A stretch of 64,000 nucleotides of DNA from an uncultured bacterium (GCA_963843795.1 CAWJLW010000006.1:2926375-2990374); one strand, 5' to 3'; shown: positions 1,065-62,888, counted from the stretch's first letter. Notes: a model not told the origin generated them from the sequence alone. Numbers and translations are program-made.

Positions 1065-1184
1065 AGCGGAAACTTTTCGCACATCACGATTTTGTGACGT
1101 TTCTGAGACGCACGGCTTTTAAGATGAAAAGCCGTGCTGCAAGTACTTGCAGCACCCCAAATCTACGTTTCGCTGGAGAACACG

Positions 1185-2975
1185 ATGAAAATCTCATGGA
1201 AAATTCTTCTGTGCGCCCTTATTATTGCGGGCACTGGCGCCTCCGCACGCGCGCAAGGCAACGTGCCGTTTCCCGGCGACACCACGCTAATGACGCGCGA
1301 TTTCGACCCGGCTCATCCCGGCCAAAGCCTGTTCAAGCCGGTTTTCAACGATCCCACTTTGCTGCGTCAGGTCGTCAACAGCGCATGGCAAGCGGGGCGC
1401 TCTTCGATTGCCGACAACATTAAAAACGATATGGGAGTAGGAAATTCGCTTGGCCCGGGCCTCACGCCGTATAACATCGCTGTCGAAATGGGACAACCGG
1501 GCGAACTCAGCGCCACGCCAGGCCATTACGCCGCCGGTTCGACGCTCGACATGATTTATGTAGTGAAAGGCAACTGGGTCGAATTTACTACCACGCAGCC
1601 AACTGCACTGGGCAAATGGGCCGACCCACGTTTTTCCTGCACCTACGATTTGACGCTGACGATTTCGATGTCGTTGGGCGATACGCCCGGCCCGCTGCAC
1701 ATGAAATCGGTGAAAGCTCAAGTCTCGAATGCCAAAATCGACTCGCATGGTTTGATTGCCGATTTGGTTTTCATCGCCAACGGCGTAGCGAAATTCTTCG
1801 GCACCAATTTCATCGCCAAAGCCGAGAACGCGCTTCAAGGCAAGAAATTCGATTTCACCGATAAAATGAACCAAAATTTAGTGCCTTTTAATGCTCTGCT
1901 GGCGAATTTCGTCGGTCAGGGTTATTCGCTGGCCGATGCGCTGCTCAACACGGCGCAGGCCCTGCCCGCCGGATTAGGCATCCGCTCGCTGCCGGGTGCG
2001 CAAAACGGCCCGCAACTGGTGATTTTCATGGACAGCAACAACAAGGTTCCGCTGACCGGCGATGGACAAATTACCGGCGCGATTCGCTGGAAAAAAGCAT
2101 GGGGGCAACCGCTGGCCGGACGCGACCGCAGTGGCCCCATCATCGCGCCCGGTTATGTAGGGCTGGGCCGCGTGAAAAACATTCATCCCTACGCCAAAGC
2201 GTTTCGCATTCGCGCCATCGCGCAGTCGGGCTTTGCGCGCGAGGGAACTTTCATGCCACCAATGAGCGAAGCCGGCACGCTGCAAAGCGTGACTTTGGAA
2301 CCGCCCACGCCCACGCGCGAAGGCAGCACGCCCGGCACCGGGGATGATTACGTGCTGCACTACACCATCGGCAAATTGCCGCTGGACGTGCCGCTCAAAG
2401 TCGAAGTCGCGCTCAACGATGTGCGCTGGGAAGGCGATGTCGGTGGCCAACAGCGCGCCATCGGCCCAGACAATTGGACGGGCACCATCACCCTGCGCAA
2501 ATCGCCATTTAATAGCGCAGCGGTTCTCCAAAATAGCACCACGCTCAACCCCAACATTTCAAGCGCTGCCAGAACCACCAAGGGCGCTGCGGGCAGTAAG
2601 GGCGAGGAGCGCGGAATTATCATCGTCAGCGGCAAAAATGGCGCTCCCGGCGACGAAACTTCGCTCAACCCACAACCGTTGCCGCCCAAATCTAATCCGA
2701 GCACTCCGGTCATCAAGCGACGCGCGACGCGCGCCGGCAGCAAAGAAAATTCTGGAATTCTGGCCCCGCCGCCGCGCATTCAACCGGGCACCACTACGCG
2801 AAACGCGCGCAGCGGTTACGACTTGGGTGCCACAGCAACCGCTACCGATAACGTCAATATAAGTGCAGCGATTCTCGCGGCCCAACTTCCCAAACCTCCG
2901 CGCGAAAATCCCAGCGGCATTCTCAGCGTTTCCGACATCGACTTCTCGATGGGCCTGATTACGCCACCGCGCTAA
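1185..2975 (+). CDS. Secreted hypothetical protein with Pro/Ser-rich C-terminal region
   Basis: ATG 1185 with GGAGAA RBS at 1175; signal peptide MKISWKILLCALIIAGTGASARA|Q; contains RGIIIVSGK and SLNPQPLPPK motifs. Confidence 0.7.
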   Translation: MKISWKILLCALIIAGTGASARAQGNVPFPGDTTLMTRDFDPAHPGQSLFKPVFNDPTLLRQVVNSAWQAGRSSIADNIKNDMGVGNSLGPGLTPYNIAVEMGQPGELSATPGHYAAGSTLDMIYVVKGNWVEFTTTQPTALGKWADPRFSCTYDLTLTISMSLGDTPGPLHMKSVKAQVSNAKIDSHGLIADLVFIANGVAKFFGTNFIAKAENALQGKKFDFTDKMNQNLVPFNALLANFVGQGYSLADALLNTAQALPAGLGIRSLPGAQNGPQLVIFMDSNNKVPLTGDGQITGAIRWKKAWGQPLAGRDRSGPIIAPGYVGLGRVKNIHPYAKAFRIRAIAQSGFAREGTFMPPMSEAGTLQSVTLEPPTPTREGSTPGTGDDYVLHYTIGKLPLDVPLKVEVALNDVRWEGDVGGQQRAIGPDNWTGTITLRKSPFNSAAVLQNSTTLNPNISSAARTTKGAAGSKGEERGIIIVSGKNGAPGDETSLNPQPLPPKSNPSTPVIKRRATRAGSKENSGILAPPPRIQPGTTTRNARSGYDLGATATATDNVNISAAILAAQLPKPPRENPSGILSVSDIDFSMGLITPPR

Positions 2976-3005
2976 CTTATGGCCCCAGCGAACGGAGAAC
3001 GAATT

Positions 3006-4064
3006 ATGAAACGTCGCGCAAAATTCGGCATTCGCCAACTTCTGTATTACTTGTGCTTATGGTTACTGAGTGGCATCAACAGCGCAAACGCTGCGGGTGC
3101 CGACCCCCAAGCGGCGGAAACCGCCATCAAGAGCGAGGCGTTTTCCAGTTTCATCGTGCAGCGCATTTACCAAAAATTGCTGAATCGCGATGTCAAGACA
3201 GACGAAGCCGCGCCCTTGGTCGCGCAGATGAAAAATGGTGACGAAGGCTGGCTGAAAGTGGTCACGAGCGTGGCCGCCTCACCAGCCTATTTTGCCCAAT
3301 CGGGCAATGCCAATCCGCAATTTGTGACCCGTTTGTTCGCCGATTTGGTGGGGCGTGCGCCCGACACTGAAGAAGAATTACCGGCTTCGATTGATTTTCT
3401 GCAAGATAATTCTCGCGCACAGTTGGCCGAGGTGCTGACCGATACCGATGAGTTTCGCGCCAATTTTGCGGGTATTTTTTATCAAGCGCTGCTCAATCGC
3501 GCTCCCAATGCCACCGAAGCCAACTCTGCTGCCGACCAATTGAAACAAGAAGGTTTGGGCGCTGTGGTTTCTGCGCTGTTGAGTTCAGCCGAATATTATC
3601 AAAAAAGCGGTGGCTCGCCCGAAAGCTGGCAAAACGCCATCAACCGCGACTTGAACGTGAACACAGGCTATAACAGCGACAACAATAGCCGCCCAGTTTC
3701 GCCGCCGCTTTCCGCGACTTTGCCAGTTAATGGCACCCGCGGGCCTTTGGTACAAGCATTACTGAGCAGCCCCGAATATCAAGCCGGTGTGGTGCAAAGT
3801 TTCTATCAAAAGTTTCTCCGCCGCGCCGCCACTCCCGCCGAAGTGCAGCAGGGTTTGGCCGCCTTGCAAGATGGTACAGCGGATTCTGTGCTGTTGATAA
3901 TTCTGACTTCGGACGAATACTTCAACCGCGCCGGTGGTACCACCAATGCTTTCCTGAGCCGCCTTTCGCAAGACTTGATCGCCAAATCTGGTGGCAAACG
4001 CGGACGGCCCTCAGCCCAGGATTTGCTCGATCTGCTACGCGATAAATCCAGATCACAGAAATGA
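3006..4064 (+). CDS. Secreted DUF4214-like repeat protein (surface/S-layer-associated type)
   Basis: Signal peptide; four repeats of 'V/F-x-x-Y-x-x-L-L-x-R-A-P/A...E' with 'LLSSAEY/LLSSPEY/ILTSDEY'; GGAGAA RBS at 2994. Confidence 0.7.
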   Translation: MKRRAKFGIRQLLYYLCLWLLSGINSANAAGADPQAAETAIKSEAFSSFIVQRIYQKLLNRDVKTDEAAPLVAQMKNGDEGWLKVVTSVAASPAYFAQSGNANPQFVTRLFADLVGRAPDTEEELPASIDFLQDNSRAQLAEVLTDTDEFRANFAGIFYQALLNRAPNATEANSAADQLKQEGLGAVVSALLSSAEYYQKSGGSPESWQNAINRDLNVNTGYNSDNNSRPVSPPLSATLPVNGTRGPLVQALLSSPEYQAGVVQSFYQKFLRRAATPAEVQQGLAALQDGTADSVLLIILTSDEYFNRAGGTTNAFLSRLSQDLIAKSGGKRGRPSAQDLLDLLRDKSRSQK

Positions 4065-4071
4065 GAGAGAA

Positions 4072-4101
4072 AAAGTCGCTGCAAGTACTTGCAGCGACTT
4101 T
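4072..4101. repeat. 30-bp perfect palindrome centred on GCAAGTACTTGC; probable bidirectional terminator
   Basis: AAAGTCGCTGCAAGT|ACTTGCAGCGACTTT between convergent genes. Confidence 0.9.
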
Positions 4102-7100
4102 CAATCGCTCCATTCTATCTCATCATCGCCGCGCAACGCTTGTCCACCATCCAACCAAACCGCAAACGTCGCCGCGCAATCATCGCGCGTGGAGCATTCG
4201 CGCAACAAACTATTCAATTCGCTCATATCGCGTTGAACACGACGGCGCGGCTTCAAGGCCTCGTCCAAACATTGCAAAGCCAACGGCGATAACGTCGCCA
4301 GCTTTGCCAATTCGCCATCCCATTGCAGCCAAATTTCGCTATCTTCTGAATTGGTACGCTGCAAACGTTCGCGCGTGGGCGCGTCTTGCAGCAGCGTTTG
4401 CAGACGAGCGCGCGTTTGCTCCAAAGCCGCGCTCAATTCTTCGGGCGCGCGCAAAACTAAACGCTGATTCCAACGCAAACGACACGAAGCGCAAACCGGT
4501 AAACCATTTAAAGAACCGTCGCGCGCACAACGTTTTTCCAGTTCGTCGTCCAACTGCGCACGCGCATTTTGCTCATCGCCAATCGTAAAATTCACGTTTT
4601 GCAACAAAGCTAGACGTTCGACAGCGCGCCAATCGTCGCGCGCGGCCAAACGCCTCAAGCTCGCCCAGCGCGCCGGATCGTGTTGCGCTTGATGCCACTG
4701 CGCGTATTGCGCGGCGTAGGCGCGACGCCACGCGGTGAAATCGGCACCCAAAGTTTCGTCGCGCAAACTGTCTTCGCCTTGCGCCAAACGCTCTAGTAGT
4801 TCTTGCCTCGCGTCTTGCAAATCGGGCGGCACAGTGAGCGCGTCGTGAGTGAGAAAGCCGTGGATTTCGACCAGAAGCGCGTGCCGGGCATCGAAGCGTT
4901 CGCGCCATTGATGCCATTCGTGCAGCGCGGTAAAAAACTGCGCATTAATGCGCGGCGCGACCTGGGCAAGTACTTGCAGCGCGCCGCCAGCGCTGTCGCA
5001 AGCCTGCAACACGCTTTCGGTTGTTTCCAACGAACTTTGCAAACGCGACCAGCGGGCATTGGGCGACGCATCGTTGCTGAGTTCCGTATTTTGTCCGCCG
5101 GTTTGACGACGCAACTGATGCCAGCGCGCGCGCATCAATTCACATTCGCCGCGCGCAGTGGTCGCCCATTCGCGGACGGCGACATACGCTTGTTGCTGCG
5201 ATTGAAAGTTTGGCGCGTCCGTAGTTTCCGCTTGTTCGGGCGCGACGATTTGCAGCAGACCTTGTACGCGCCGCCACGCTGGTTCATCCAACAAAGTGCC
5301 CTCGCGCAAGCTATGCACGCTGCGTCGCAAGGGTAAGCCAATTTCCAAAGCCGATAAGGCCGCGCCGCGCGCATCAACCGCCAACCATTGACCGCCACGC
5401 AGCAGGGCGCAAATCGCCAGTTGCATCTGCTCGGCCACCAAACCCCATTCGTTACGCGCAAACTGGTCATACAGCGCGTTCAAATTCAGCGCGCCATTTT
5501 CCTGCAAGGCAGCTTCCAAATCGCGGCGCAAGTCTTGATCCGGCAATGCAATCATCCAACGTCCGTCGCGTTCGCTGGCGACGCCTAAAGGTGCGGCTAA
5601 GTGGCGCACCAAACGTTCTAGCGAAGGCGCGAAAAATGGCGCCTGCGCGGGACGACGCAATATCTCCAAACCCAACTGATCGGCATTGCCTTGTGTAAGA
5701 ACTCGCGCGCGCGGAGCTACACGTTCAAAAAGCGGATACACGTTCGGCAACAGCCAATCGGCGACGGATTCCAATGTCGCACTCCAACTTTGTGCTGCAG
5801 TGAGTTCGCTGGCCTCCAATGCGCCGCCATCGCCGCTGATGAGTTCGCCTTCGCGCCATAAACGCTCCATAATTTGCGCTGTGCGCGCATCGTAAGCCGC
5901 GCCTTCGTTTTGCAAAATTCCCAGCACGGCACGACCGCGGCGATTATCTAATAATTGCGGATCGTCGGCTAACAAACGCGCGCCACAGGCTTCGCTCATC
6001 GCGCGCCATTCGTCATTAGTCGGGCGACGCGCCAGCCACAACGCCACGCGCGCTTTGTCGCGCGCTTCATCCGGCAAACGTTCGCGCAATTGATGGAAAA
6101 AATCGCGCGAAGTTTCTCCGTGCGCCAGCAAAAGCAAAACTTCATCGCGCGCGCCCGGCTGAATGGCTGAGGGCTGCGATAAAAGCGCAATCCGATTGAG
6201 CGTCCAGTCGCGTGCTGCGCTGTCGTCACCTTCGTGACCGGCGCGCCACAAAAGCGCTTGCACGCGGCGCGGCGCGTTGTGCCAGAAAATATCATACGAG
6301 CGCGCTTCTTCCAATTCGCGCAGTGGCAAAACTGCCTGGCGACAACAATCAATTGCATGACGCCAGACGCGCGCATCGTTTGGCGCGAAACTTTCCAACG
6401 TGTTTTGCAGCGCGCGCCGCGCCGCTTCGCCAGCGCGCACGCCAGCGTCAATTGTCCAGCGGTCGGCCCATTCGCCTTCGCGCCGCTCGACCGCCAAATG
6501 ACCGCCGCGCGTGCGCAAACGCTCGGCAAGTACTTGCGCCCACGCGTAATTGCCTTCGTCTGGCAAATGCGCATCTAAGGCAATCGTGTGCGCGATTTGT
6601 GTGGCATCTGGCGCGATGCCGGCGATTTTAAAAACTACCATCGCTTGCATTACGCGCCGCATCGCATTTTCATCGACCGCGCTTTGCGCGATATGCGCCA
6701 GCTCGGTTTCCCAACTGCGCCACACTTCGCCCAAGGCGCGCAATTCAGGATGCTCTTCCAATTCGCCGCGCAAATAATCAAACAATTCGCCGATGCCAAC
6801 GCGCGTATTGGCGGGTGCGGAAAGATCAATCGAACTGGCGCAGAAAATTGCTGCCGAGCGCGTGCGCGACAAAAAGCGCGCCACGCATTGTTCCAGCAGC
6901 GCAATAATCGGCGGATGAAACGGCACCAGTTGCCGCCATTCATCGCGTCCAAAATCCAAACGTGGCAAGGCATTTGACAGCGTTTCAAAAGTGGTGCGGC
7001 AAACGCGCGATATAGCTTCTTCATCCCGAATTTCGATTAAACGCCGCTCGACCAAAGCGGGAATATGCGCTGTGGCAAGCGGGAGGGTTTGAAAGCGGTC

Positions 7101-7919
7101 GCGGATTTGTTGCAGCGAGTACGTTTCAATGCCGCCAATATCTTCGACGGTTTTCTGCAAGGCGGCAAACACGCACAAACTCGGCCTGCAAGTACTTGCA
7201 ACGTCATTTTGTGGCGGACGCGCGCGCTGTCCCAAAAATTGCAGCCACGCCGCGTCGGCCTGCAAAGCGCGATGTTCGCGCGCTGCCAGAAACAACGATA
7301 ATTCGTCCCAACACACTAATAGCCCATCGAATTCGTGCGCGCTTAACGAGGCCTCGAGCGCAGAAAATTGTTCGCGCCGCGACAAATGCTCTTCAGCTTG
7401 CGGCGCGTCATCGTTGCATCCGGCACGCTTCCATTCCAGCGCCAGTTCGCGCCAGAAAATCGCCTCCAACGACCAACGCTCACCATCGTATTCGTCTAGC
7501 GCGATGTGCAACGCCAACTGCCGCCGATGGTGCAAACGCCCAACCAAAGGCGCGCAGTTGGGATTCGATAGCGCAAAGGCCCGCAAACCGCGCCGCTGCG
7601 CCAATAATCCCAACACGCCCAGAAAGTGACTCTTGCCCGCGCCAAAAACGCCATTGAGAAAAAACGCGCCGCCCGGTGCATGGGTCGCGTCGCCACACAA
7701 AGCGCGCAGAGCGCGTTGCAGAGCTTGCGAGGAAGCATCATCAACGCCGAGATAGCCACCAGTGAAACTCGAAACTTCGGCGCAATCAGCGTCGGTATTG
7801 GCGCGCGAAGCTTGGCGCAGGGCGCGAATATCGGCGGCCTGCACAACGACAGGAAAGTCGCGTACCGCGATGAGTTCGCCCAGCTTTTGATTATCGACAG
7901 CGGAAGGGGTGGAATTCAT
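4101..7919 (-). CDS. Large P-loop ATPase, DUF6079/BrxC(PglY)-like
   Basis: Walker A GVFGAGKSH, Walker B LLVCWDEL, 'QQIRDRFQ', long helical C-terminus with C-x11-C-x2-C; 1272 aa. Confidence 0.65.
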   Translation of the reverse strand: MNSTPSAVDNQKLGELIAVRDFPVVVQAADIRALRQASRANTDADCAEVSSFTGGYLGVDDASSQALQRALRALCGDATHAPGGAFFLNGVFGAGKSHFLGVLGLLAQRRGLRAFALSNPNCAPLVGRLHHRRQLALHIALDEYDGERWSLEAIFWRELALEWKRAGCNDDAPQAEEHLSRREQFSALEASLSAHEFDGLLVCWDELSLFLAAREHRALQADAAWLQFLGQRARPPQNDVASTCRPSLCVFAALQKTVEDIGGIETYSLQQIRDRFQTLPLATAHIPALVERRLIEIRDEEAISRVCRTTFETLSNALPRLDFGRDEWRQLVPFHPPIIALLEQCVARFLSRTRSAAIFCASSIDLSAPANTRVGIGELFDYLRGELEEHPELRALGEVWRSWETELAHIAQSAVDENAMRRVMQAMVVFKIAGIAPDATQIAHTIALDAHLPDEGNYAWAQVLAERLRTRGGHLAVERREGEWADRWTIDAGVRAGEAARRALQNTLESFAPNDARVWRHAIDCCRQAVLPLRELEEARSYDIFWHNAPRRVQALLWRAGHEGDDSAARDWTLNRIALLSQPSAIQPGARDEVLLLLAHGETSRDFFHQLRERLPDEARDKARVALWLARRPTNDEWRAMSEACGARLLADDPQLLDNRRGRAVLGILQNEGAAYDARTAQIMERLWREGELISGDGGALEASELTAAQSWSATLESVADWLLPNVYPLFERVAPRARVLTQGNADQLGLEILRRPAQAPFFAPSLERLVRHLAAPLGVASERDGRWMIALPDQDLRRDLEAALQENGALNLNALYDQFARNEWGLVAEQMQLAICALLRGGQWLAVDARGAALSALEIGLPLRRSVHSLREGTLLDEPAWRRVQGLLQIVAPEQAETTDAPNFQSQQQAYVAVREWATTARGECELMRARWHQLRRQTGGQNTELSNDASPNARWSRLQSSLETTESVLQACDSAGGALQVLAQVAPRINAQFFTALHEWHQWRERFDARHALLVEIHGFLTHDALTVPPDLQDARQELLERLAQGEDSLRDETLGADFTAWRRAYAAQYAQWHQAQHDPARWASLRRLAARDDWRAVERLALLQNVNFTIGDEQNARAQLDDELEKRCARDGSLNGLPVCASCRLRWNQRLVLRAPEELSAALEQTRARLQTLLQDAPTRERLQRTNSEDSEIWLQWDGELAKLATLSPLALQCLDEALKPRRRVQRDMSELNSLLRECSTRDDCAATFAVWLDGGQALRGDDEIEWSD

Positions 7920-8094: not shown

Positions 8095-9228
8095 ATTTCT
8101 TCTGCTAACCAATTTTCCACACTCGACAATTCACAACTCGATGTCGCGCGTTGGGCCGATTTCGTGGGCGCGTCGCCGCATGGCGATGTGCTGCAATGTT
8201 TGCAATGGGGCGAGGTCAAACGTCCCGATTGGCAACCGCTGCCAATCGCACTCAGCGAAAACGGGCAAATCGTGGCCAGCGCGCTTGTTCTGAAACGCAA
8301 CTTGCCGCGCGTGAAGCGTTCGATTTTTTATCTGCCGCGCGGCCCGATTCTCGATTGGGCGCGTCCAGAATTGTTTGACGCGCTGCTGCACCAACTGCAA
8401 GTACTTGCTCGACGTCATCGCGCGATTTTGCTAAAAATCGACCCCGCCGTCGCAATCAACACACCAACCGCGCCGCAAGTACTTGCATTGCTCAAACAAC
8501 ACAATTTCCAGCCTTCGCCAGATGCGAATAATGCGTTTGGCGGCACGCAACCGCGCTTCAACATGAAGTTGGATATTTCGGGCAGCGCGGATGAAGTCTT
8601 GGCGCGCTTTCATCAGAAATGGCGTTACAACGTGCGTCTGGCCAATCGCAAAGAAGTTGAAGTTGAAACTGTGACAAATCGTGAAAGCATCGCGGTTTTC
8701 CACGACTTGTATCGCATCACGGCGGAACGCGATGGTTTTACAGGACGGCCTTTATCGTATTTCGAGAAATTGTGGGATGCTTTGGTGCCGCCCGGTTTGG
8801 CGCAATTTTTCATCACGCGGCGCGAAGGCCACGCTTTGTCGGCGGCGATTTGTTTCGCGCTGGGCGAGCAATGCTGGTATGTTTATGGCGCGAGTAGCAA
8901 CGAAGATCGCAAGATGATGCCCAACCACGCGATGCAATGGGCAATGATGCAATGGGCGCGCGAACGCGGCTGCAAACTGTACGATTTTCGCGGTGTGCAT
9001 GATGTGCCCAAACCCGAAAACGCGGGCGCAGATTTCGACGTTTCGACTTTGGACACGGCGCAACTGATGGAATCGGAAGATGGATTGGTGCGCTTCAAAG
9101 CCGGTTTTGGCGCGCAATTGAGCGAATATGTGGGCGAATACGATTTGCCCTTACAGCGCAACTGGTATTGGCTGTGGACAAGCGCGCGCCCGCAATTGGT
9201 GCGCGCGTTGAAGAGGGCGCGGCGCTAA
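8095..9228 (+). CDS. FemAB/FemX-family peptidoglycan bridge aminoacyltransferase
   Basis: 'WADFV..SPHGDVLQ..WGEVK', 'YLPRGP', 'KWRYNVRLA', 'YDFRG', 'GLVRFKAGFG'. The ORF track starts at GTG 8164, but homology extends upstream to a probable ATT start at 8095. Confidence 0.85.
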   Translation: MSSANQFSTLDNSQLDVARWADFVGASPHGDVLQCLQWGEVKRPDWQPLPIALSENGQIVASALVLKRNLPRVKRSIFYLPRGPILDWARPELFDALLHQLQVLARRHRAILLKIDPAVAINTPTAPQVLALLKQHNFQPSPDANNAFGGTQPRFNMKLDISGSADEVLARFHQKWRYNVRLANRKEVEVETVTNRESIAVFHDLYRITAERDGFTGRPLSYFEKLWDALVPPGLAQFFITRREGHALSAAICFALGEQCWYVYGASSNEDRKMMPNHAMQWAMMQWARERGCKLYDFRGVHDVPKPENAGADFDVSTLDTAQLMESEDGLVRFKAGFGAQLSEYVGEYDLPLQRNWYWLWTSARPQLVRALKRARR

Positions 9229-10541: not shown

Positions 10542-10589
10542 AAGCGAAAAGCGCGCTGCAAGTACTTGCAGCGCGCTTTTCGCTTTCAA
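10538..10589. repeat. 52-bp perfect loop-less palindrome centred on GCAAGTACTTGC; probable bidirectional terminator
   Basis: TTGAAAGCGAAAAGCGCGCTGCAAGT|ACTTGCAGCGCGCTTTTCGCTTTCAA between convergent rnd and sulfatase. Confidence 0.92.
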
Positions 10590-12031: not shown

Positions 12032-13417
12032 TCACTCCCTACTCAACAATTCTTGCGCTTGTGCCAATTGTTCGCGCACGCGTTGCGGCGCTGTGCCGCC
12101 CGCGCTCAAGCGCGCTGCAACACTGTTATCCACATCAACTGCTGCAAAGACATTCTCATCAATGCGCGCGTCAATATTTTGCCATTGCTCCAGCGTCACG
12201 TCTTCCAGCGTCAGCGCGTTGTCTTCGCAGAACTTGACGGCGTGGCCAGTAATTTCGTGCGCTTCGCGGAACGGAATTCCCAAGCGCACCAGATAATCGG
12301 CCACATCGGTTGCGGTTGAAAAGCCGCCGCCCGCTGCAGCGCGCATATTTTCGGTATTGAAAGTCGTGGTTTCCAGCACGCCGCGCGCGATTTCCAGACA
12401 ATCACCAACGGTATCAAACGCGTCGAACAGCGGTTCTTTATCTTCCTGCAAATCGCGATTGTAAGTCAGTGGCAAGCCTTTGACCAGCATCATCAAAGTG
12501 TTATGTGCGCCGCAAACGCGCGCGCTTTTGCCGCGAATCAGTTCCATCGAATCGGGATTTTTCTTCTGCGGCATAATCGAACTACCGGTCGAAAAGCGGT
12601 CGTCCAGAGCGATGAAACCGAACTCCGGCGCGCTCCACAGAATCCATTCTTCGGCCAAGCGCGACAAATTTAAAGCGATAATTGACAGCGCGCTGGTGCT
12701 TTCCAACAGATGATCGCGGCTCGCAACCGTGTCCATCGAGTTGTGCGAAACGCTCGCAAAACCGAGTTCTTGCGCGACCCATTCGCGGTCGATGGGAAAC
12801 GTTGTGCCCGCCATCGCCGCCGCGCCTAATGGCAAAACATCGGCGTGTTCCAATGCGTTTTCCAAGCGTTCGCGGTCGCGCTGCAACATCCAAAAATAAG
12901 CCAACAAATGATGCGACAGCAGAACCGGCTGCGCACGCTGCAAATGCGTGTAACCGGGCAAAACCGCGCCCATTTGTTCCTCAGCGCGCCGTGCAAGTAC
13001 TTGCTGCACACTTTGGACGGCTTCAATCGTGGCTTGCAGCGCGTCCTTGAGATACAAACGCACATCGAGGGCAACTTGATCGTTGCGCGAACGCGCCGTG
13101 TGCAATTTGCCCGCGACCGCGCCGATGCGTTCGGTTAAATGGCGCTCGACGAACGAATGAATATCTTCATCGGGCGCACCTTCAAAGTTCAGCGCGCCGC
13201 TTTCCAAGTCGTCGTAAATCGTTTGCAAACCGTCGCGAATTTGCGCGGATTCTTCGGGCGCAAGTACCTGCACCTGTTCCAGCATCGAAACGTGAGCCTG
13301 AGAACCGCGCAAATCGTAGCGCCACAGGCGCGAATCAAAAGGTAAAGAAGTCGAAAAACGCGCCATCGCCGCGTCCGGGCCGCTCGAAAAGCGCCCGCCC
13401 CACAAAGCATTATTCAT
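12032..13417 (-). CDS. argH: Argininosuccinate lyase
   Basis: 'LWGGRF', 'HTARSRNDQV', 'PGYTHLQRAQP', 'GSSIMPQKKNPD'. Confidence 0.97.
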   Translation of the reverse strand: MNNALWGGRFSSGPDAAMARFSTSLPFDSRLWRYDLRGSQAHVSMLEQVQVLAPEESAQIRDGLQTIYDDLESGALNFEGAPDEDIHSFVERHLTERIGAVAGKLHTARSRNDQVALDVRLYLKDALQATIEAVQSVQQVLARRAEEQMGAVLPGYTHLQRAQPVLLSHHLLAYFWMLQRDRERLENALEHADVLPLGAAAMAGTTFPIDREWVAQELGFASVSHNSMDTVASRDHLLESTSALSIIALNLSRLAEEWILWSAPEFGFIALDDRFSTGSSIMPQKKNPDSMELIRGKSARVCGAHNTLMMLVKGLPLTYNRDLQEDKEPLFDAFDTVGDCLEIARGVLETTTFNTENMRAAAGGGFSTATDVADYLVRLGIPFREAHEITGHAVKFCEDNALTLEDVTLEQWQNIDARIDENVFAAVDVDNSVAARLSAGGTAPQRVREQLAQAQELLSRE

Positions 13418-13444: not shown

Positions 13445-14320
13445 TCAGCGCAAAGCGCGCACAGAGATTTTCACAGCCGTCGCATGCTCTCGATTCGGCT
13501 CCAAAACCACGCGATTCTCACCGACATTCGCGGTTTCGATGCACGCCATTCGCGGCCATTCTTCATCGCCAAAATCCGCCATACGACGAGCTTTCTCAAT
13601 CCACGGATTCCAGACAACCGTGCTTTGCGAACCGCTTTTTTCGACGACAATTTCGCGCTGCCACGCTTCATCAAGCAGGACGCAAGTACTTGCCGAATCA
13701 TAAACGCGGTCAGTTTCCTGCGTAAATCGCAAAGGCGCATTTTCAGACTTTTCGTCATTCACGATTTTGTCCCAATAGGGCGCATCTTCCAATCCGCTGA
13801 TAGAAACTTGGCGCGCATCGCTGACCGTGAAATAGGAATGCAGCGCGATTTCATATTCGCAAGTACTTGCCGAATTGTTTTGCGCTTCAAAACGGATTTC
13901 TAATTGTTCGCCAATCGAAAGGCGCAACTGCACGTCCAATTGCGGCCAACCATCTTGCGCCACAACTTCGCTTGAAGGCACGAAAACCAGTTCCTTTGCC
14001 TTTTCGTTTTCGCTCGCTGCTTGCAATTTCCAATCGAACAAGCGCGCCAAACCATGCGCGGGCGCATCTGCATCGTCGCTTTTGGGGCCGAACCACGGGA
14101 AACAAAGCGGCACGCCACCGCGAATCGATTTGCCGCTGGCAAAATCCGATTTTTCGCTCATCCACAAAACCGGCTTTTGCCCGCGCGGTTCCCAGTGCGT
14201 GACATGAGCGCCATGCAGATAAATTCCCGCCGATGAATATTGATTTTCGACGACAATTTTGGGCAAGTCTCCGTGCCCATTTTCCATTTTGCAGCCCGAC
14301 AATGATTGAAGCAAATCCAT
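13445..14320 (-). CDS. D-hexose-6-phosphate mutarotase (YeaD-like)
   Basis: 'IRGGVPLCFPWFG', 'HGLAR', 'ALHSYF', 'VVWNPW'. Confidence 0.9.
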   Translation of the reverse strand: MDLLQSLSGCKMENGHGDLPKIVVENQYSSAGIYLHGAHVTHWEPRGQKPVLWMSEKSDFASGKSIRGGVPLCFPWFGPKSDDADAPAHGLARLFDWKLQAASENEKAKELVFVPSSEVVAQDGWPQLDVQLRLSIGEQLEIRFEAQNNSASTCEYEIALHSYFTVSDARQVSISGLEDAPYWDKIVNDEKSENAPLRFTQETDRVYDSASTCVLLDEAWQREIVVEKSGSQSTVVWNPWIEKARRMADFGDEEWPRMACIETANVGENRVVLEPNREHATAVKISVRALR

Positions 14321-46065: not shown

Positions 46066-46139
46066 AATTTTCCCTTTGCTTCACCCTGCAATTACTTGCA
46101 GGGCCTTCCCACTTTCAACCGCGCTTCCCAATTGCGCTT

Positions 46140-47186: not shown

Positions 47187-47211
47187 GAGAAGCGTCGGGA
47201 ATTAAAAATGC

Positions 47212-47244
47212 GTCTGCAAGTACTTGCGGCAAGTACTTGCAGAC
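47212..47244. repeat. Tandem pair of GCAAGTACTTGC forming a 33-bp palindrome
   Basis: GTCT-GCAAGTACTTGC-G-GCAAGTACTTGC-AGAC. Confidence 0.9.
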
Positions 47245-47282
47245 ACTTGTAACATCATTGGGAGATCAGGGCAGCTTGAATT

Positions 47283-49613
47283 TTAACGACGACCGCGCAT
47301 CGGCGTAACATTTTGCAAGTGTTTAGGTTGGAACAGATCGGGCGGCAGTTTCACACCCGAACGTTGAATCGCTTCGTCGTTTTTGGGGCGCATTCCGGTG
47401 GCTTGCAGCGCGCCATGAATTTTACCAGCGTCATCGATATATTCTTGCTCGAAGCGAAAAATATCTTGCATTGTAATCACGTCGCCTTCCATGCCGGTAA
47501 TTTCCGTGACATAGGTGATGCGGCGCGAACCGTCTTTCATGCGATCTTGATGCACAATCAGATGAATCGCCATCGCGATTTGCTCGCGAATCGCGCGGAT
47601 GGGCAAATCAAAACCGCTCATCAAAACCATCGTTTCCAAACGCTTGAGCATATCGCGCGGCGCGTTCGAGTGACCGGTTGTCAAACTGCCGTCGTGTCCC
47701 GTGTTCATCGCCTGCAACATATCCAGAGCTTCGGCGCCACGGCATTCGCCAATTACAATGCGGTCGGGACGCATACGCAGCGCATTACGCACCAGGTCGC
47801 GAATCGTGACCGTGCCAACGCCTTCGACGTTGGGTGGGCGCGTTTCCAAACGCACCACGTGATCTTGCCGCATCTGCAATTCCGCCGCGTCTTCAATTGT
47901 TACGATGCGCTCGGTGGAAGGAATAAAGCCCGACAAAACGTTCAAGGTCGTAGTTTTGCCACTGCCGGTGCCGCCCGAAATCAAGATATTCAAACGCGCT
48001 TCAACGCACGCTTGCAAGAACTGCGCGGATTCGCGCGTGAGTGAACCGAAGTTGATTAAATCGGTCATTGTAAACGGATCGCGCGCGAATTTGCGAATCG
48101 TAATTGTCGGCCCGCCCAAACTTAAGGGAGGAATGACGGCATTAACGCGGCTACCATCGCGCAAACGCGCATCGACCATCGGCGATTTTTCATCAACGCG
48201 GCGACCCAACGGCGCCACGATGCGATCAAGTACTTGCAGCACATGTTTATTGTCGCGAAAGCGCAGCGCGGTCAATTCAAGCTTGCCCTTGCGTTCGGCG
48301 TAAATCTGGTGCGGCCCGTTCACCATGACTTCATCGACATCGGGATCAGCCAATAATGGCTCGATAGGGCCAAGCCCGATAATTTCGTTGATTAAATCGG
48401 TAATTAAAGCTGCGCGTTCAGCGCGCGTCAGGGCGATGCGCTCTTCGCCGATGACATCATTAATCATGTCTTCGACCTGCGAGCGCAATTGATCGGGATT
48501 GGCAGTGGCGGCGCGCGAATCGAGATTTTGCAGCAATTTTTGCTGGATGCGTTCGCGCAGTTGGGCATAGGGCTGCGTCACATTTTTCTGCTCGCCCTGC
48601 CGACGCAACGATTCGAACGGATTACCGCTACCTTTTTCAACTGTTAACGAAGGCCGGCTCGAAAGCGGTGCCATTTTGGCGCGCACGCGCGCGCCACCGG
48701 GCAAGGGTCGGTCGAGAAGCGGAACTTTGGTGTCGATGCGTCCGCGCACTAGGTCGGCGACGCGGCGAATCAGCATCAGCACATGATCGTCATCGCGAAA
48801 CGAAACCGGCGTCTGCTCGATCTGCCCCAGACGTTCGACTTGCACGTCTTGAGCGTTATTAATGAGAATTTTGCCCAGTGCCGGGTCGTCAAGATATGAC
48901 GTGATCGGGCCGAAATCCATCACTTCAGCGACAAATTCTTTGAGCATCCAGGCGCGCTCGGCGTTTTCCAACACCATATCGTGCGCGGCGAGAGCGCCCT
49001 CGATCGCGTTTTGCAGTGCCTCGGTGACTGCGGGGCGCGCGGGGTTTTGCAGCAATCGCGGATCAATCGCGCTGAGAACGTCATCGAAAATCAAATGCTT
49101 CCACTCGAAACGCTCGCGCAAAACGCGGTCGGTTTCCGAAAGCGAAGCCAGCGCGGTTTCGCTGTTTTCCGCGTAAGTATTGAATTCGCCGCGCTTCACT
49201 AAAGGAGGTAAATCGTCATCGTCCTCATCTTCGTAAGCCGCGGCAGTGCCCACCAGAAAATTGCCTCCCAGTTGCATTTCGTGGTCGCTATCGCCGATTT
49301 CGCTATCGTCGATTTCGCTGTTGTCAATTTCGTTATCGTCGTAATCGGTGATTTGGCCCTGACCCAATGCGATTCCGTTGCCGTTACCATTGGCGCGTTC
49401 GCCACTCATGGGTGCGACGAATTTTTCGCGCAAAGTGGCCGAAGTGCCGTCGTAATCGACTTCGGCCTGCTCGTAGGCGTCGGACTCGCCCGATCTGAGG
49501 CCGCTCGTGTCATCGCCATCGGCATCGCTGTTGGCGTTTTCGTCACTGGCATCGACATTGATGAGCGCGGCATCTTTATCGCGCACACTATTAAGACGGG
49601 ATAACAAAGACAT
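47283..49613 (-). CDS. tadA: CpaF/TadA pilus ATPase with acidic extension and duplicated N-terminal domain
   Basis: GGTGSGKTT, 'IEDAAEL', '[16 protein letters not shown]', 'AMNTGHDG'; ATG 49613 with GGAGG RBS. Confidence 0.92.
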
Positions 49614-49898
49614 CAACAACCTCCAAGCAAACAGCAAACAAACACTTTTCCAGACCAATCGAAATGATTTTCGTTGCTTTCAACGACCGACAAACTGCGA
49701 GTGTTTGAAAGACAAAATTTTTCTTTTCCAAGCTCATTGTAAATCATAATCATTGAAAAACAAAGTCTCGTACGGCTTCTCAAATTCTCAAACTAACCTC
49801 GCACAACTTTTGCCTTTCTCCAGCCATTGCCGCAAGTACTTGCCACTGACTTTTTAATGTCCTGCTCTATAAAAGATAACTATCGAAGTCAATCACGA

Positions 49899-51380: not shown

Positions 51381-51447
51381 AAGTTTGCCTTCAAATTTCT
51401 CTGCAAGTACTTGCCAGACCTTCTTGCCACTCAGTCACAATACGCAA

Positions 51448-52140: not shown

Positions 52141-53646
52141 ATGAAAAATAGTGTGGAAATGGAACGAGGCACAGCGATTTTCGCTTCGATTTATGCTAAT
52201 TTGGAGCCGCGCGAGCTGTGGCGTCACTTCGCGATGTTGAACGCAATTCCACGCGTTTCGGGACGCGAGGCGAGGGCGCGCGATTACGTTTTGCAGCTTG
52301 CCAGCGACGCCGGTGCCCAAAGCGCGGTCGATGGCGCGGGCAACGTCGTGGTGCGCGTGGCAAGTACTTGCCCCAACGAAAATGCGCCCGTTGTAACTCT
52401 GCAAAGCCATCTCGATATGGTGCCGGAAAATCGGCCCGACGTGACGCATAGTTGGGAGCGCGATGCCATTCAGCCGCGCCTCGTCGGGGACAAAATTTAC
52501 GGTAGCGGCACAACTTTGGGCGCAGATAATGGCATTGGCGCAGCAATGATGATGGCTTTCCTCACTTCGCCCGATTTGACACATGGCCCGCTCGAACTGC
52601 TGTGGACGGTGCAGGAAGAAACCGGTTTGACCGGCGCACAAAATTTGGATGGCGACTTGTTGCGCGGCACCATGCTGCTGAATTTGGACACCGAAGATCC
52701 CAACGAAATTATCATCGGCTGCGCTGGCGGACGCGATGTAACGATTCAATCTCCGGTGGCGCGCGAAAAGATGCCACCCGATTGGGTCGCTTACGAAATT
52801 TCTATCGGCGGGCTAGCGGGCGGACATTCCGGCATTCAAATCACGGAAAAGTTGGCCAACGCCATTAAATTATTGGCGGACGCGCTGCAAAAAGGAATGG
52901 AAACCGGCGGCGATTGGCGTCTGGCCGAAATCAGCGGAGGCAACGCGCGCAACGCTATTCCACGCGATGCGCGCGCACTTATTGCGCTTCCCGAAGCACA
53001 AGCCGCGGAATGGAAACTTGCGCTGGAAACTTACGGCAAGTACTTGCAGCAGCAATGGCAGCCGCACGAAACACCAACACTGAAATTTCAGATCAGCGAA
53101 AAAGCAGCCCCAGAAATTTCACCGTTATCATCGCAAAGCGGCGCGCGCATCGTTGCACTATTGCGCGCTCTGCCGCACGGTGTATTGAGTTGGAGCGAAG
53201 TGGTCGAGGGCAAGCCGCAAACGTCGTGCAATCTGGCAACGATTGAAACGATAGAACAACAGATAGAGATTCATCTCAGTGGTCGTTCTTTTAATGACGT
53301 TGCGTTGGAAGAATGGCAAAACGAAATATGCTCACAAGCGGCTTTGTATTCGGCTCAGTGTCGGAACAGCGGTGGCTATACCGGTTGGGAACCCGCAGCG
53401 GAGTCGCCACTTTTGCTAAGCGCCGCTCGCGTTTATCAAGAATTTTACGGTCGTGAGCCACAAATCGAAATTGTGCATGCCGGTCTCGAATGCGGCTTGA
53501 TTTTGGCCAAATATCCGCAAATGCAAGCGATTTCGTTCGGCCCGCTGATTCGAGCGCCGCACACACCGGAAGAATATGTTGAAATTCCTAGCGTCGACGA
53601 CAGTTGGCAATTTTTACTCGCATTGCTGCGCAAATTAGCTTCGTAA
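52141..53646 (+). CDS. pepD: Aminoacyl-histidine dipeptidase (M20C)
   Basis: 'QSHLDMV', 'TTLGADNGIG', 'EETGL', 'GGHSG', 'HAGLECG', 'HTPEE'. Start uncertain (52141 or 52159). Confidence 0.9.
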   Translation: MKNSVEMERGTAIFASIYANLEPRELWRHFAMLNAIPRVSGREARARDYVLQLASDAGAQSAVDGAGNVVVRVASTCPNENAPVVTLQSHLDMVPENRPDVTHSWERDAIQPRLVGDKIYGSGTTLGADNGIGAAMMMAFLTSPDLTHGPLELLWTVQEETGLTGAQNLDGDLLRGTMLLNLDTEDPNEIIIGCAGGRDVTIQSPVAREKMPPDWVAYEISIGGLAGGHSGIQITEKLANAIKLLADALQKGMETGGDWRLAEISGGNARNAIPRDARALIALPEAQAAEWKLALETYGKYLQQQWQPHETPTLKFQISEKAAPEISPLSSQSGARIVALLRALPHGVLSWSEVVEGKPQTSCNLATIETIEQQIEIHLSGRSFNDVALEEWQNEICSQAALYSAQCRNSGGYTGWEPAAESPLLLSAARVYQEFYGREPQIEIVHAGLECGLILAKYPQMQAISFGPLIRAPHTPEEYVEIPSVDDSWQFLLALLRKLAS

Positions 53647-53700
53647 AATCAGTGTGCAAGTACTTGCACGATTATCTGATGATAGGCACTTAAGAAAAAA

Positions 53701-55767: not shown

Positions 55768-55853
55768 AATCCCAAAACCGTGCTGCAAGTACTTGCGCCG
55801 CATTTTACAGCCAAAACACGCGCTGCAAGTACTTGCAGCGGGACACAAACGAC

Positions 55854-55898: not shown

Positions 55899-56015
55899 TC
55901 GTGGCGGCGACCTACTTTCCCATACAGTTGCCCATACAGTATCATCGGCGCTGAGAGGCTTAACTTCCGTGTTCGGAATGGAAACGGGTGTGACCCTCTC
56001 GCAATGACCACCACA
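55899..56015 (-). rRNA. rrf: 5S rRNA
   Basis: Reverse complement contains CACACCCGTTTCCATTCCGAACACGGAAGTTAAG, GCCGATGATACTG, GGAAAGTAGGTCGCCGCC. Ends approximate. Confidence 0.95.
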
Positions 56016-56117
56016 AATTGTTCAGGGATTTAAAAGTCCGAAGACTCTACCCTGAAAACTGCATGAGTGAAAGAGAAATCCAATTTCGCAAGCGAGGCAA
56101 GTGCCTAATAATTCAAA

Positions 56118-59071
<2,954 letters not shown>

Positions 59072-60058: not shown

Positions 60059-61078
60059 TCACGCTGCAAGTACTTGCAGCGTATCGTCACGACGTAGTGA
60101 AGCGTGCAAGCAATCGCGCAGAATGTCTTCGAGTTCGGACATGCTTTGCACCTGACACAAGCGGTCGCGCAGGCGAGCCGATTCGGGCATTCCTTTCGTG
60201 TACCATGCGGCATGACGACGCATTTCGTTCATCGCAGTGCGCTCGCCTTTCAATTTCAATAGTTCGCCCGCGTGCCACAGTGCGGTATCGATCTTTTCTT
60301 GCGCGCTCGGTTCTTCGATTTCGCTGCCATCTTCGAGATAACGCGCGATCGCGGCGAAAATGAATGGGTTGCCTTGCGCGGCGCGACCAATCATCACGGC
60401 ATCACAGCCGGTTTCATCGAACATGCGTTTGGCATCCGCACCATTATGCACATCGCCGCCGCCGATAACGGGAATCGAAACGACCTCTTTGATGCGACGA
60501 ATCACCGACCAATCGGACAAACCGGTGAAGGCTTGTCGTGCAGTGCGTGGATGACAAGTGACGGCGACCGCGCCGACATCCTGCGCGCGTTGGGCGACTT
60601 CGGGCGCGGTGATATTGTGTTCATCCCAGCCCGCGCGCATTTTCACCGTGACAGGAACGCCATGAACTGCCGCGCCTTGAACAGTCGCTTCGATAATATC
60701 TTGTGCTAATTCCGGCGTTTTCATCAGCAAACAGCCCGCACCGCACTTAGCGATTTTGGGCACGCTGCAACCCATGTTGATATCGATGGCGTCGGGCTTG
60801 GAGGCGGCAATCATCGTTGCGGCTTCGCGCATCAAAGCGGGATCGGAGCCAAAAATCTGCACGGCGACCGGTCGTTCTTCTTCGCAAAACCACGCCAATT
60901 GATGCGACTTTTCCAGCGATTTCGCGCCGCCCATAATCAGGGCGTTAGACGAGACGAGTTCGGAGAAACTCATGCCCGCGCCGTAACGACGACACAGCAA
61001 GCGAAACGGACTGGATGTGATGCCCGCCATCGGAGCCAAAACTAAATCCGGTTGTACGTCAATTCCTGCAATCTTCAT
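60059..61078 (-). CDS. dusB: tRNA-dihydrouridine synthase B
   Basis: 'LAPMAGIT', 'VQIFGSDP', 'IDINMGC', 'TVKMRAGW', 'VMIGRAAQGNP'. Confidence 0.93.
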   Translation of the reverse strand: MKIAGIDVQPDLVLAPMAGITSSPFRLLCRRYGAGMSFSELVSSNALIMGGAKSLEKSHQLAWFCEEERPVAVQIFGSDPALMREAATMIAASKPDAIDINMGCSVPKIAKCGAGCLLMKTPELAQDIIEATVQGAAVHGVPVTVKMRAGWDEHNITAPEVAQRAQDVGAVAVTCHPRTARQAFTGLSDWSVIRRIKEVVSIPVIGGGDVHNGADAKRMFDETGCDAVMIGRAAQGNPFIFAAIARYLEDGSEIEEPSAQEKIDTALWHAGELLKLKGERTAMNEMRRHAAWYTKGMPESARLRDRLCQVQSMSELEDILRDCLHASLRRDDTLQVLAA

Positions 61079-61622: not shown

Positions 61623-61679
61623 ACGTGTTGAAGAGAAAGGAGAAAAGACGGTAACAACTACTTGCAGGACAAGTTTCTC

Positions 61680-62498
61680 TCAAGAACTTTCTACGTTCGG
61701 TGCGACTTCTCCGCGTCTCTGCGCGAAATCGTTTTCCCAAATTAAGCGCAAGCCGTCCAATGTTAATGTCGGCTCGATGTGCCCGATTTGCGGGACTAGG
61801 GGCGCAATTGTCGGCGCTAAACCGCCAGTCGCTACTATCGCCACTGATTCTGCGTTCAATTCATCGACACAGCGCGAAACCAGCTCTTTTACTAAGCCTG
61901 CGTAACCAAACAAAATCCCGGCAGAAATTGAATCCAACGTGTTGCGACCCAGGGCACTTGGCGGCGCGCGCAGGGCATCCAAACGCTCGACGCGCGGCAA
62001 TTTGGCGGCGCGCGCAAATAAGGCATCGGTCGAAATTCCCACGCCCGGTGCCAAACTGCCACCCAAATATTCGCCGCGCGCTGACACCGCATCAACGGTT
62101 GTCGCCGTCCCAAAATCGACGATCACGCACGCGCTACCGAACTTGCGCCACGCCGCGACGCCATTGACCAGACGATCTGCGCCGACTTCGTGTGGATTGT
62201 CGTAACGATTGACCAAACCCGTCTCGACGCCGCGCCCAATAACCAGTGGTTCCAAACGCAGATACCTGCGACACACACCAATCGCAGCGGGCGTGAGCGA
62301 AGGCACGACGCTCGAAATCGCCGCGCCTTTCACGTCTGCAAAATCCAACTGCTGCGAAGAAAAAACAAAGCCCAAAAATGCGGCTAACTCGTCTTCAGTG
62401 CGCTCGCGCAAGGTCGATAAACGCCACTGCGTCCATCTGTTATCGCGCCACGCACCGATGACGATATTGGTGTTACCAATGTCGAAAGCAAGAAACAT
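61680..62498 (-). CDS. coaX: Type III pantothenate kinase
   Basis: 'FDIGNTN', 'SSVVP', 'GADR', 'VDFGTATT', 'ATGG'. Confidence 0.95.
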   Translation of the reverse strand: MFLAFDIGNTNIVIGAWRDNRWTQWRLSTLRERTEDELAAFLGFVFSSQQLDFADVKGAAISSVVPSLTPAAIGVCRRYLRLEPLVIGRGVETGLVNRYDNPHEVGADRLVNGVAAWRKFGSACVIVDFGTATTVDAVSARGEYLGGSLAPGVGISTDALFARAAKLPRVERLDALRAPPSALGRNTLDSISAGILFGYAGLVKELVSRCVDELNAESVAIVATGGLAPTIAPLVPQIGHIEPTLTLDGLRLIWENDFAQRRGEVAPNVESS

Positions 62499-62609
62499 AG
62501 GCGGTGAAAGTGAACCGAAATACAGGCAACAAACGCCCCGCAAGTACTTGCGGGGCGAGTTTACAAAAGCGCGATTTACGCTCGAGATTCCGTTTGCATT
62601 CCGCGAGAT

Positions 62610-62843
62610 TTAACCTTTAGCTTTATTTTCATCGCTTTCCGGCACAGCCGCTTCGGCAGCTTCGAAACCGATGCGGCTGTGCGTGCCATCGCAGAACGGT
62701 TTGTTAGTGCTAGCGCCGCAGCGACACAGGGAAAACTTTTCCTTGCCGATTTCGACCGGCGTGCCATCGGCCCATTCCATCTCGACATCGCCCGTCACAC
62801 GCAGCGGGCCGTTCTTTGCAATCACGATTTTCACATCTGCCAT
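62610..62843 (-). CDS. CDGSH iron-sulfur domain protein
   Basis: 'NGPL.V', 'LCRCGASTNKPFCDGTH'; AAGGAG RBS. Confidence 0.92.
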   Translation of the reverse strand: MADVKIVIAKNGPLRVTGDVEMEWADGTPVEIGKEKFSLCRCGASTNKPFCDGTHSRIGFEAAEAAVPESDENKAKG

Positions 62844-62888
62844 AATTTTTCTCCTTAATTCTCGCGCTGCAAGTACTTGCAGCGCACG

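Follow-up and report, generated by a model that had tools for sequence, protein, structure and literature searches.

A 12-bp palindrome iterated throughout an Abditibacteriaceae genome and the helically phased arms around it

Why should one 12-bp palindrome recur again and again in a bacterial chromosome? The question is raised by a stretch of 64,000 nucleotides from an uncultured bacterium (GCA_963843795.1 CAWJLW010000006.1:2926375-2990374; hereafter the window), in which the initial annotation had noticed the word GCAAGTACTTGC. We recovered all of the 38 exact copies that it had counted between positions 1139 and 62880; dinucleotide shuffles of the window (n=100) contained a mean of 0.01 copies and a maximum of 1. 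The single-mismatch copies that it had listed (9275, 13260, 39625, 43303, 46088, 48226 and 53713, the last ending at 53724) are exactly the seven that exist. Its division into about 15 coding and 23 intergenic copies was closely matched by our recount from open reading frames (ORFs) and Pfam matches, which gives 15 coding, 22 non-coding and one ambiguous copy (1139), and the 23S (56117-59071) and 5S (55899-56015) rRNA genes are indeed free of copies.

The word is not a peculiarity of this window. In the genome under study (G000; other G-numbers denote relatives), which homologue names place in the family Abditibacteriaceae, GCAAGTACTTGC occurs 2,567 times in 4.30 Mb compared to 506 single-mismatch copies, and the dominance of perfect copies seen in the window (38 versus 7) thus holds throughout. 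A fourth-order Markov model trained on the motif-masked genome predicts 0.1 coding and 0.1 non-coding copies, and the runner-up among 12-bp palindromes reaches 33 copies. The preference for CT...AG flanks described for the window extends genome-wide, with 879 of the 2,567 copies in this 16-mer form. An assembly or adapter artefact was ruled out, as the word is present on 11 of 11 contigs and not confined to one, occurs on contigs of other species in several public metagenome assemblies, and is covered by contigs of the public run X1 (possibly the source sample) that span the copies at 8475, 12993, 13682 and 13859, with the motif unchanged among the differences listed. The metagenome relatives are ~70% identical to G000 and have 60-70% GC; they iterate the same 12-mer and contain AGTACT at 1.1-1.2 per kb. 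A broad contig scan for GCAAGTACTTGC gave at least 36 matches, each single and apparently due to chance. In the full-text literature we found neither the exact 12-mer nor AGTACT as an overrepresented palindrome of bacterial genomes; supplements and most subscription papers lay outside this search, and a mention in a k-mer survey table is possible. The string 'abditibacteri' did not occur in the papers listed. We conclude that the word is real, is maintained at the DNA level and belongs to the class of highly iterated words, as had been proposed by comparing it in kind to highly iterated palindrome 1 (HIP1) and to uptake sequences.

What is maintained extends well beyond 12 bp. Around the centre of the copies, AA/TT steps peak symmetrically at ±15, 25.5, 36, 46.5, 57 and ~67 bp, with GC peaks interleaved at ±10, 20, 31, 41, 52 and 63 bp, and the AA/TT wave is seen in coding (codon-position corrected) and non-coding DNA alike. 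Over 21-70 bp and at a period of 10.5 bp, its amplitude is 0.154 for exact, 0.112 for single-mismatch and 0.088 for double-mismatch copies. Other GTAC sites reach 0.012, further common palindromic words 0.007-0.041, and random sites with AA/TT imposed at ±15 reach 0.033. This last control rules out the general periodicity of the genome as the cause of the arms; the strong genome-wide AA/TT autocorrelation (contig C6) has a period of ~11.1 bp that persists beyond 110 bp and is distinct from the 10.5-bp arms. A protein-motif or helix-periodicity artefact was also ruled out, since the phase is identical across the three reading frames (amplitude 0.17-0.21, null 95% 0.05-0.09), is visible in two-fold synonymous codon choice, and the arms are absent at identical peptides that are not encoded by the word. 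It is the DNA, rather than protein or RNA, that is under selection or drive.

Neighbouring copies follow the helix as well. Pairs 17-110 bp apart fall on multiples of 10.4-10.6 bp (~20, 30, 40, 51 and 62 bp), with a Rayleigh Z of 19.3 for 145 exact pairs versus 10.0 as the largest of 1,000 jitter nulls, and their spacers are unrelated; among pairs 70-200 bp apart, no helical phasing was seen. Whatever reads the word prefers helical phasing out to ~±70 bp. A-tracts bend toward their own minor groove and, because the peaks are phased as they are, the arms would curve the duplex without interruption and turn the major groove of the central GTAC to the inside, in the manner of a nucleosome or a U-turn; we take this phase to resemble nucleosome wrapping. 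We infer that the reader acts on duplex DNA. Judged from the sequence statistics, the functional unit is probably ~140 bp long and consists of the 12-bp palindrome (16 bp with CT/AG) between two arms that would bend the duplex one way. The initial annotation thus had the word right, but its 12-bp unit missed this extent as well as the large non-coding share and the co-option into terminator-like hairpins that we report below.

The copies are also spread evenly. Along the 3.6-Mb contig the mean gap is 1,578 bp and the density is 47-83 per 100 kb (30 in the first bin), flat over both halves and free of an origin-terminus trend. At every scale between 3 and 50 kb, counts are evener than in 200 of 200 permutations matched for length. 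Intergenic gaps hold a single copy far more often than expected under a Poisson model, and the mean number per gap barely rises as gaps grow from 60 to 800 bp. Genes compensate for their surroundings: when copies are present in none, one or both of the flanking gaps, genes have 0.363, 0.209 or 0.134 coding copies per kb (n=189, 296 and 132), which corresponds to a Poisson slope of -0.50 (standard error 0.06), and the anti-correlation between neighbouring gaps is limited to within 1 kb. With a method simpler than that of the HIP1 study, no period emerged within 10-150 kb (top periodogram peak 5.75 versus ~5.6 by chance). Thus, one copy per 1-2 kb suffices. Because copies compensate over ~1 kb, the independent creation of sites by repair, mobile repeats and terminator function alone are all disfavoured. 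As the copies are evenly spaced and flanked by phased arms, they point to a putative protein that grips and bends the DNA at the copies, and a duplex-reading, DNA-bending protein that drives the word is our best reading.

We then asked where the copies sit. Coding copies number 748 of 2,567 (29%, 0.20 per kb), compared to 1,797 non-coding ones (70%, ~2.9 per kb); genes were called with a self-trained caller (3,447 genes) that missed some, such as the one at 8164-9228 of the window, and the non-coding share is therefore slightly too high. Of the gaps between genes, 281 of 450 convergent ones hold a copy, compared to 1,096 of 2,286 between co-oriented and 240 of 457 between divergent genes, and density is highest between convergent genes. 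There, 203 of 294 copies extend into perfect arms of at least 5 bp; the resulting hairpins are long and perfect, carry A/U tails and have a mean extension of 9.5 bp (1.9 bp for shuffled partners); among coding copies, only 30 of 748 are extended that far. Three convergent-gap copies of the window have folding z-scores of -3.9 to -8.0 versus -0.9 for a coding copy. Co-oriented gaps, too, have symmetric A and T tracts. Many non-coding copies thus appear to have been co-opted into terminator-like hairpins as a secondary use.

Coding copies use all three frames (491, 144 and 113) and skew the composition of the proteome: the peptide QVLA occurs 562 times, whereas its permutations average 43, and the word encodes 499 of the 562. 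In orthologue alignments a gap falls inside the site in only 5 of 34, 4 of 27 and 1 of 25 cases, so that coding copies mostly align ungapped. Compared to G009, which has a different dialect of the word, amino-acid identity is 0.34 at the sites and 0.61 in the flanks, and the AGTACT core is shared at only 1 of 34 sites. Of the homologous sites, 15 of 27 and 17 of 25 retain the core in two species with the same word (68-70% protein identity), a conservation that survives a Val-Leu control (Fisher p 1e-6 and 1e-8), and G001 retains it at 3 of 8 sites, which carry the flanks of G001 itself. Because the core is kept in distant same-word species while the flanks are dialect-specific, the sites are old and maintained at the DNA level, with flanks rewritten upon dialect change. 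Copies are rarer in the most codon-typical genes (0.094 versus ~0.2 per kb), and the copy-poor regions are acquired DNA, namely islands rich in insertion sequences, a type I restriction island and a contractile-injection-like contig. On this contig, C3, positions ~2,600-27,300 carry a contractile-injection-system-like cluster (sheath, tube and baseplate-type genes by appearance), which was probably acquired recently because it is almost free of the word.

Among relatives, the word turned out to be both local and variable. The exact 12-mer has 0-3 copies in each of 40 relatives, a genome of the same genus included. The core AGTACT is bimodal in the order, with 2,813-4,733 copies in six of 28 genomes and 1-285 in the other 22, and does not exceed ~0.22 per kb in any of 145 genomes outside the family. 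The flanks define dialects: GCA/TGC in G000, CAA/TTG in G001, TCG/CGA in G009, G015 and G019, and a looser CG form in G012. In G006, a hyper-abundant 24-bp palindrome with GTAC near both ends replaces the AGTACT-centred word (65 copies of its central part in 160 kb; loci L070, L071 and L176-L181). G007 and G016, and probably G018, have an oriented word with the core AGCCACG at ~0.8-0.95 per kb, which forms inverted pairs with A/T tails, as DNA uptake sequences (DUS) do, in the loci sampled from the first two (G007: L074, L075, L162-L168 and L647; G016: L079 and L169-L175). Next to the G007 word, AA/TT phasing is strong and lies mainly on the 3' side (amplitude 0.27, period ~10.9 bp, to ~+85), inside long ORFs as well. 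At distances of 30-85 bp, significant arms remain in G000 (0.111; the null reaches at most 0.026) and, 3' of the word, in G007 (0.273); they are borderline in G009 and the metagenome relatives, with G009 clear only over 12-60 bp. In 17-69-kb samples of 14 other relatives, we found no hyper-abundant word. A one-gene tree places the AGTACT-rich genomes in three deep branches with a weakly supported backbone, and a single origin of the AGTACT word with later losses is possible. The same dialect is also written into the proteins of two phage- or satellite-like contigs, L255 (10.6 kb, 16 copies) and L268 (5.4 kb, 5 copies), whose genes include a tape-measure protein and a DnaB-like helicase and primase.

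Two side observations concern these distributions. Extreme avoidance of AGTACT (0-15 copies in multi-Mb genomes) and of GTAC (observed/expected ratio, O/E, of 0-0.14 in samples) is family-wide, extends to families f11 and f34 of the phylum and may track an orphan methyltransferase; all GTAC figures of relatives are from samples of 11-456 kb. In addition, viral contigs of 38-45% GC (L332, L352, L365 and overlapping viral loci), which do not match G000 at the nucleotide level, contain the exact word 2-3 times per 10 kb.

Which process would drive such a word? At a little under an even chance, we favour a signal for the uptake of self-DNA, and by analogy the reader would most likely be the specificity receptor of a natural-competence (type IV pilus) uptake machinery. 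A two-fold symmetric protein would read the ~140-bp unit in double-stranded DNA and bend or wrap the segment. Fragments of kin DNA with a site would fold into a U-turn at the palindrome, be preferentially taken up and then be recombined into the genome. This bias would spread the word wherever proteins tolerate it, as for the DUS of Neisseria and the uptake signal sequences (USS) of Haemophilus; many non-coding copies would later be lengthened into bidirectional terminator hairpins, and receptor changes would yield species dialects around the AGTACT core.

The uptake signal is suggested by the population statistics, since the in-gene share, the spacing and the ratio of exact to mismatched copies match the DUS of N. 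meningitidis Z2491, with 1,892 exact and 815 single-mismatch copies, 34.5% in genes and a spacing of ~1,500 bp (PMC2397512; throughout, statements on published systems refer to the accessible portions of the papers cited). It is further suggested because copies are missing from acquired islands, sit at variable residues and are rarer in codon-typical genes, just as uptake sequences are absent from acquired DNA, favour poorly conserved residues and are fewer in codon-typical genes (PMC2817400). In addition, the dialects share a core across the family, as DUS dialects vary around a common core (PMC3630211). USS carry helically phased A/T tracts, which we reproduced in a sample of 142 copies, and uptake is thought to begin at an internal kink (PMC7811141). 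As returns diminish over ~1 kb, the copies fit a rule by which one site per fragment is enough. Intact ORFs of the competence genes comEC, comEA and dprA are present in the genome, alongside a type IVa pilus cluster and a comM-like gene. The names ComM, for the comM-like gene, and YraN, for UPF0102, are ones that we take to be transformation-related.

Several results weigh against an uptake signal. Our candidate searches found no receptor or reader protein, and ComP_DUS (PF16732) was not found in G000 by a search that matched no control genome either. The uptake machinery does not co-vary with the word: comEC is present in 28 of 28 genomes of the order, word-less ones included, a pilin query matches 26 of 28, and no pilus-cluster gene tracks the word. 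The known DUS and USS are not palindromes (PMC1939737), and arms beyond 30 bp were not significant in samples of DUS (152 copies) and USS (142 copies), in which power was borderline. The 30-85-bp arms are not significant in G001 or G016, which limits their generality. Furthermore, L255 and L268 are denser in copies than the chromosome, and an intracellular reader explains this equally.

Such a reader could be a cytoplasmic particle that organises the chromosome: a dimer would read the palindrome, and ~140 bp would wrap or form a supercoil tip every ~1.6 kb, with direct selection keeping the even spread. We regard this as a serious possibility, if an unlikely one. It would account for the symmetric AA/TT and GC peaks (0.154 versus 0.033 in the forced control), the pairs at whole helical turns, the flat density over both halves of the main contig, the sites kept in same-word species and the saturation of resident mobile elements with the word. 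However, no candidate protein emerged. No HMF-type histone (PF00808) was found in the 92%-complete genome, other bacterial histone families not having been searched. HU is encoded once, is ordinary and occurs in all 28 genomes (the alignment covered 17 of 30 sequences), no IHF-like second HU was found in G000, and genes with several upstream copies yielded no reader candidate among the matches listed. The 14 relatives that lack a hyper-abundant word in their samples also speak against the particle, as do the restriction of significant 30-85-bp arms to G000 and G007 and the lack of a 10-150-kb period, unlike in HIP1 (PMC5861425). We hold it to be rather unlikely that the word marks sequence-positioned, nucleosome-like chromatin, in which a putative complex would wrap ~140 bp each ~1.6 kb, the word could be rewritten from palindromic to oriented, and phage-like elements would copy it for packaging or tolerance. 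Alternatively, as in HIP1, an orphan methyltransferase might mark the central GTAC, with methyl-guided repair or recombination making and keeping the palindrome. The sole PF01555 methyltransferase of the genome (N4/N6-type, beta-class; C6:2517365-2518135, DPPY motif) is found in 22 of 28 genomes; across 14 loci its neighbours vary and no partner gene is conserved. GTAC has an O/E of 0-0.14 in 9 of 12 sampled word-less genomes with an intact enzyme and of 0.77-1.01 in a sampled clade of three without it, and methylated HIP1 increases transformation (bioRxiv 10.1101/2024.09.10.611283). Yet the enzyme also occurs in genomes without the word, including most such relatives, whereas G016 and G025 lack it and are GTAC-poor. 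No C5 or D12-class enzyme was found in the genome, and homologues gave no readable recognition specificity. A PabI-family nuclease, considered as a possible cause of GTAC depletion, was found in 0 of 28 genomes, with no control genome matched either. Mismatches are no less frequent within GTAC than elsewhere in the word, symmetric double changes account for only 21 of 371 two-mismatch copies, the words of G007 and G016 lack GTAC, and in three plasmid stretches HIP1 is without arms (amplitude 0.037, null 95% 0.073, 298 arm windows). Because site-by-site repair predicts neither the compensation over ~1 kb nor the phased arms, methylation-directed repair fits worst of the three mechanisms originally put forward and is improbable; biased uptake and a chromosome-organising protein remain viable.

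Two further explanations fare worse. Strong gyrase sites, at which gyrase would cleave around the central GTAC and wrap the arms, seem very improbable, although the E. coli gyrase motif is likewise symmetric, 130 bp long and periodic (PMC6379681), the G000 dialect fits the -4G/+8C, -2A/+6T and +1G/+4C preferences (PMC12324340), copies are densest between convergent genes, and no genome of the order has more than one GyrA/ParC-family match. With A+T peaks expected ~19, 30, 40, 51 and 61 bp from the cleavage dyad (PMC6379681), the profile centred on GTAC is instead in anti-phase to the E. coli motif (r -0.47, and -0.76 at +1 bp; Table DS10, PMC6379681) and correlates positively only at offsets near -4 or +6. 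Moreover, -1A is disfavoured in the pneumococcal topoisomerase IV consensus (PMC3814380), the other dialects violate the -4G and/or -2A rules, and GyrA is a single, ordinary protein whose N-terminal region shows no dialect-linked difference by eye in the outer portions of the alignment. As an observation in its own right, 26 of 28 genomes have one GyrA/ParC-family gene and two incomplete ones have none, so that the order apparently has gyrase without topoisomerase IV. A mobile repeat of the repetitive extragenic palindromic (REP) or miniature inverted-repeat transposable element type, or selection for terminators alone, would explain that 70% of copies are non-coding and that those in convergent gaps mostly have terminator-like folds; the genome also has one N-terminally truncated, RAYT-like (REP-associated tyrosine transposase) Y1 transposase (C6:751935-752357, L116). 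This transposase, however, is flanked by a GTAG-type repeat of its own, which differs from the word and of which a 12-letter part occurs 18 times in the genome; no stand-alone GIY-YIG gene of Ssn size was found in the genome. Rather than being extragenic, clustered and inserted as REP are, and flanked by a cognate RAYT, the copies repel each other, the coding ones mostly align without gaps and are rarely extended, and the A/T tracts are symmetric in co-oriented gaps too. This explanation is scarcely credible and already largely refuted. Readings outside those named have a small chance.

Compared to known systems, GCAAGTACTTGC shares with DUS and USS a ~1.5-kb spacing, a share of about one third in genes, the excess of exact over single-mismatch copies, thousands of near-perfect copies, dialects with a common core, absence from acquired DNA, placement at variable residues and reuse in terminators, and with USS also the phased A/T tracts beside the core. 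It differs from them as a perfect palindrome with symmetric arms of ~±70 bp and in-phase neighbours, found in an unrelated phylum and with no ComP found. Being a palindrome whose role in uptake is putative, it is not classed here as a DUS or USS. Like HIP1 (GCGATCGC) and the alternate HIPs, it is a palindrome used in all three frames, conserved at homologous sites and with lineage-specific extensions (PMC4390886, PMC5861425), accompanied by an orphan methyltransferase with the central 4-mer as its possible target. Unlike HIP1, it has 12-16 bp instead of 8-10, is 14-fold denser outside genes and lacks the 10-150-kb period; the plasmid HIP1 sample is without phased arms, and the methyltransferase here is not co-distributed with the word. 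The E. coli gyrase motif has a comparable symmetric footprint of ~130-140 bp with arms of 10.5-10.75-bp period (PMC6379681), and the mainly one-sided G007 arm resembles the strong gyrase site of Mu; the gyrase motif, however, has the opposite phase when centred on the palindrome, is degenerate and has no fixed 12-mer.

Lastly, we describe the copies of the window, each of which is on genome-wide average the centre of ~±70-bp phased AA/TT arms, a statistical property that is not visible per copy. The ambiguous copy (1139-1150) lies at the 5' end of the ORF 1134-2975, coding or just upstream. Copies in convergent gaps are found at 4081-4092 (centre of a terminator-like hairpin, z -6.0), 10558-10569 (between RNase D-like and sulfatase genes, at the centre of a long, perfect, A/U-tailed hairpin, z -8.0), 23919-23930 (terminator-like hairpin, z -3.9), 32803-32814, 39193-39204 (at the 3' end of the comM-like gene) and 53656-53667. 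Coding copies lie in the minus-strand ORF 4101-7919 (4966-4977, 6526-6537 and 7188-7199), a FemAB-family gene (8397 and 8475, together 8397-8486), argininosuccinate lyase (12993-13004, with AGTACT at the homologous place in G012 and an RNA fold that is not significant, z -0.9), an aldose epimerase gene (13682 and 13859, together 13682-13870), ornithine carbamoyltransferase (17453-17464), a class-III aminotransferase (18504-18515), a beta-lactamase/NamZ-domain gene (30690-30701), a further coding sequence (35331-35342), an M20 peptidase (52360-52371 and 53036-53047) and the last codons of a dihydrouridine synthase gene (60066-60077). Non-coding copies occur between co-oriented genes (18098-18109 and 19512-19523), upstream of a GH92 gene with its start called at 21711 (21564-21575), at 24465-24476, at 25264-25275 (gene start called at 25155), at 26107-26118 (a partial tandem copy follows), between the UPF0102 and comM-like genes (40849-40860, hairpin z -2.9), at 44248-44259, 49832-49843 and 51403-51414, upstream of type III pantothenate kinase with its start called at 62498 (62540-62551) and at 62869-62880. 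A non-coding tandem pair (47216 and 47229, 13 bp apart; 47216-47240) lies inside the pilus-assembly cluster, and a pair downstream of the 5S gene (55785 and 55825; 55785-55836) exemplifies in-phase spacing, being 40 bp or ~4 helical turns apart. For context, the comM-like AAA ATPase (Mg_chelatase/ChlI domains) and the UPF0102 gene occupy 39215-41348 on the minus strand, the copy-free rRNA genes 55899-59071 on the minus strand, and the pilus-assembly genes 45166-49658, where Pfam matches indicate two T2SSF proteins and one 791-aa T2SSE-domain protein. Frameshifts are apparent in many conserved G000 genes, for instance 6-phosphogluconate dehydrogenase near C6:2271395-2272898 and the pilus cluster, and are possibly long-read assembly errors.

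To our knowledge, the bacteria known to take up DNA in a sequence-specific manner belong to two proteobacterial families, and what HIP1 does is a matter of debate even after 30 years. If GCAAGTACTTGC is truly an uptake signal, it would be a third system, from an unrelated phylum, with palindromic and oriented dialects plus word-less relatives in one family. If the reader is cytoplasmic, the word would mark a sequence-positioned unit of bacterial chromatin. The arms predict a bent or wrapped footprint of ~140 bp and known phase, which could serve as bait for the reader and would separate uptake from folding, and the analysis of flanks is transferable to HIP1 and similar iterated words. The dialect-rich family would then offer a natural experiment on the origin and change of iterated words.

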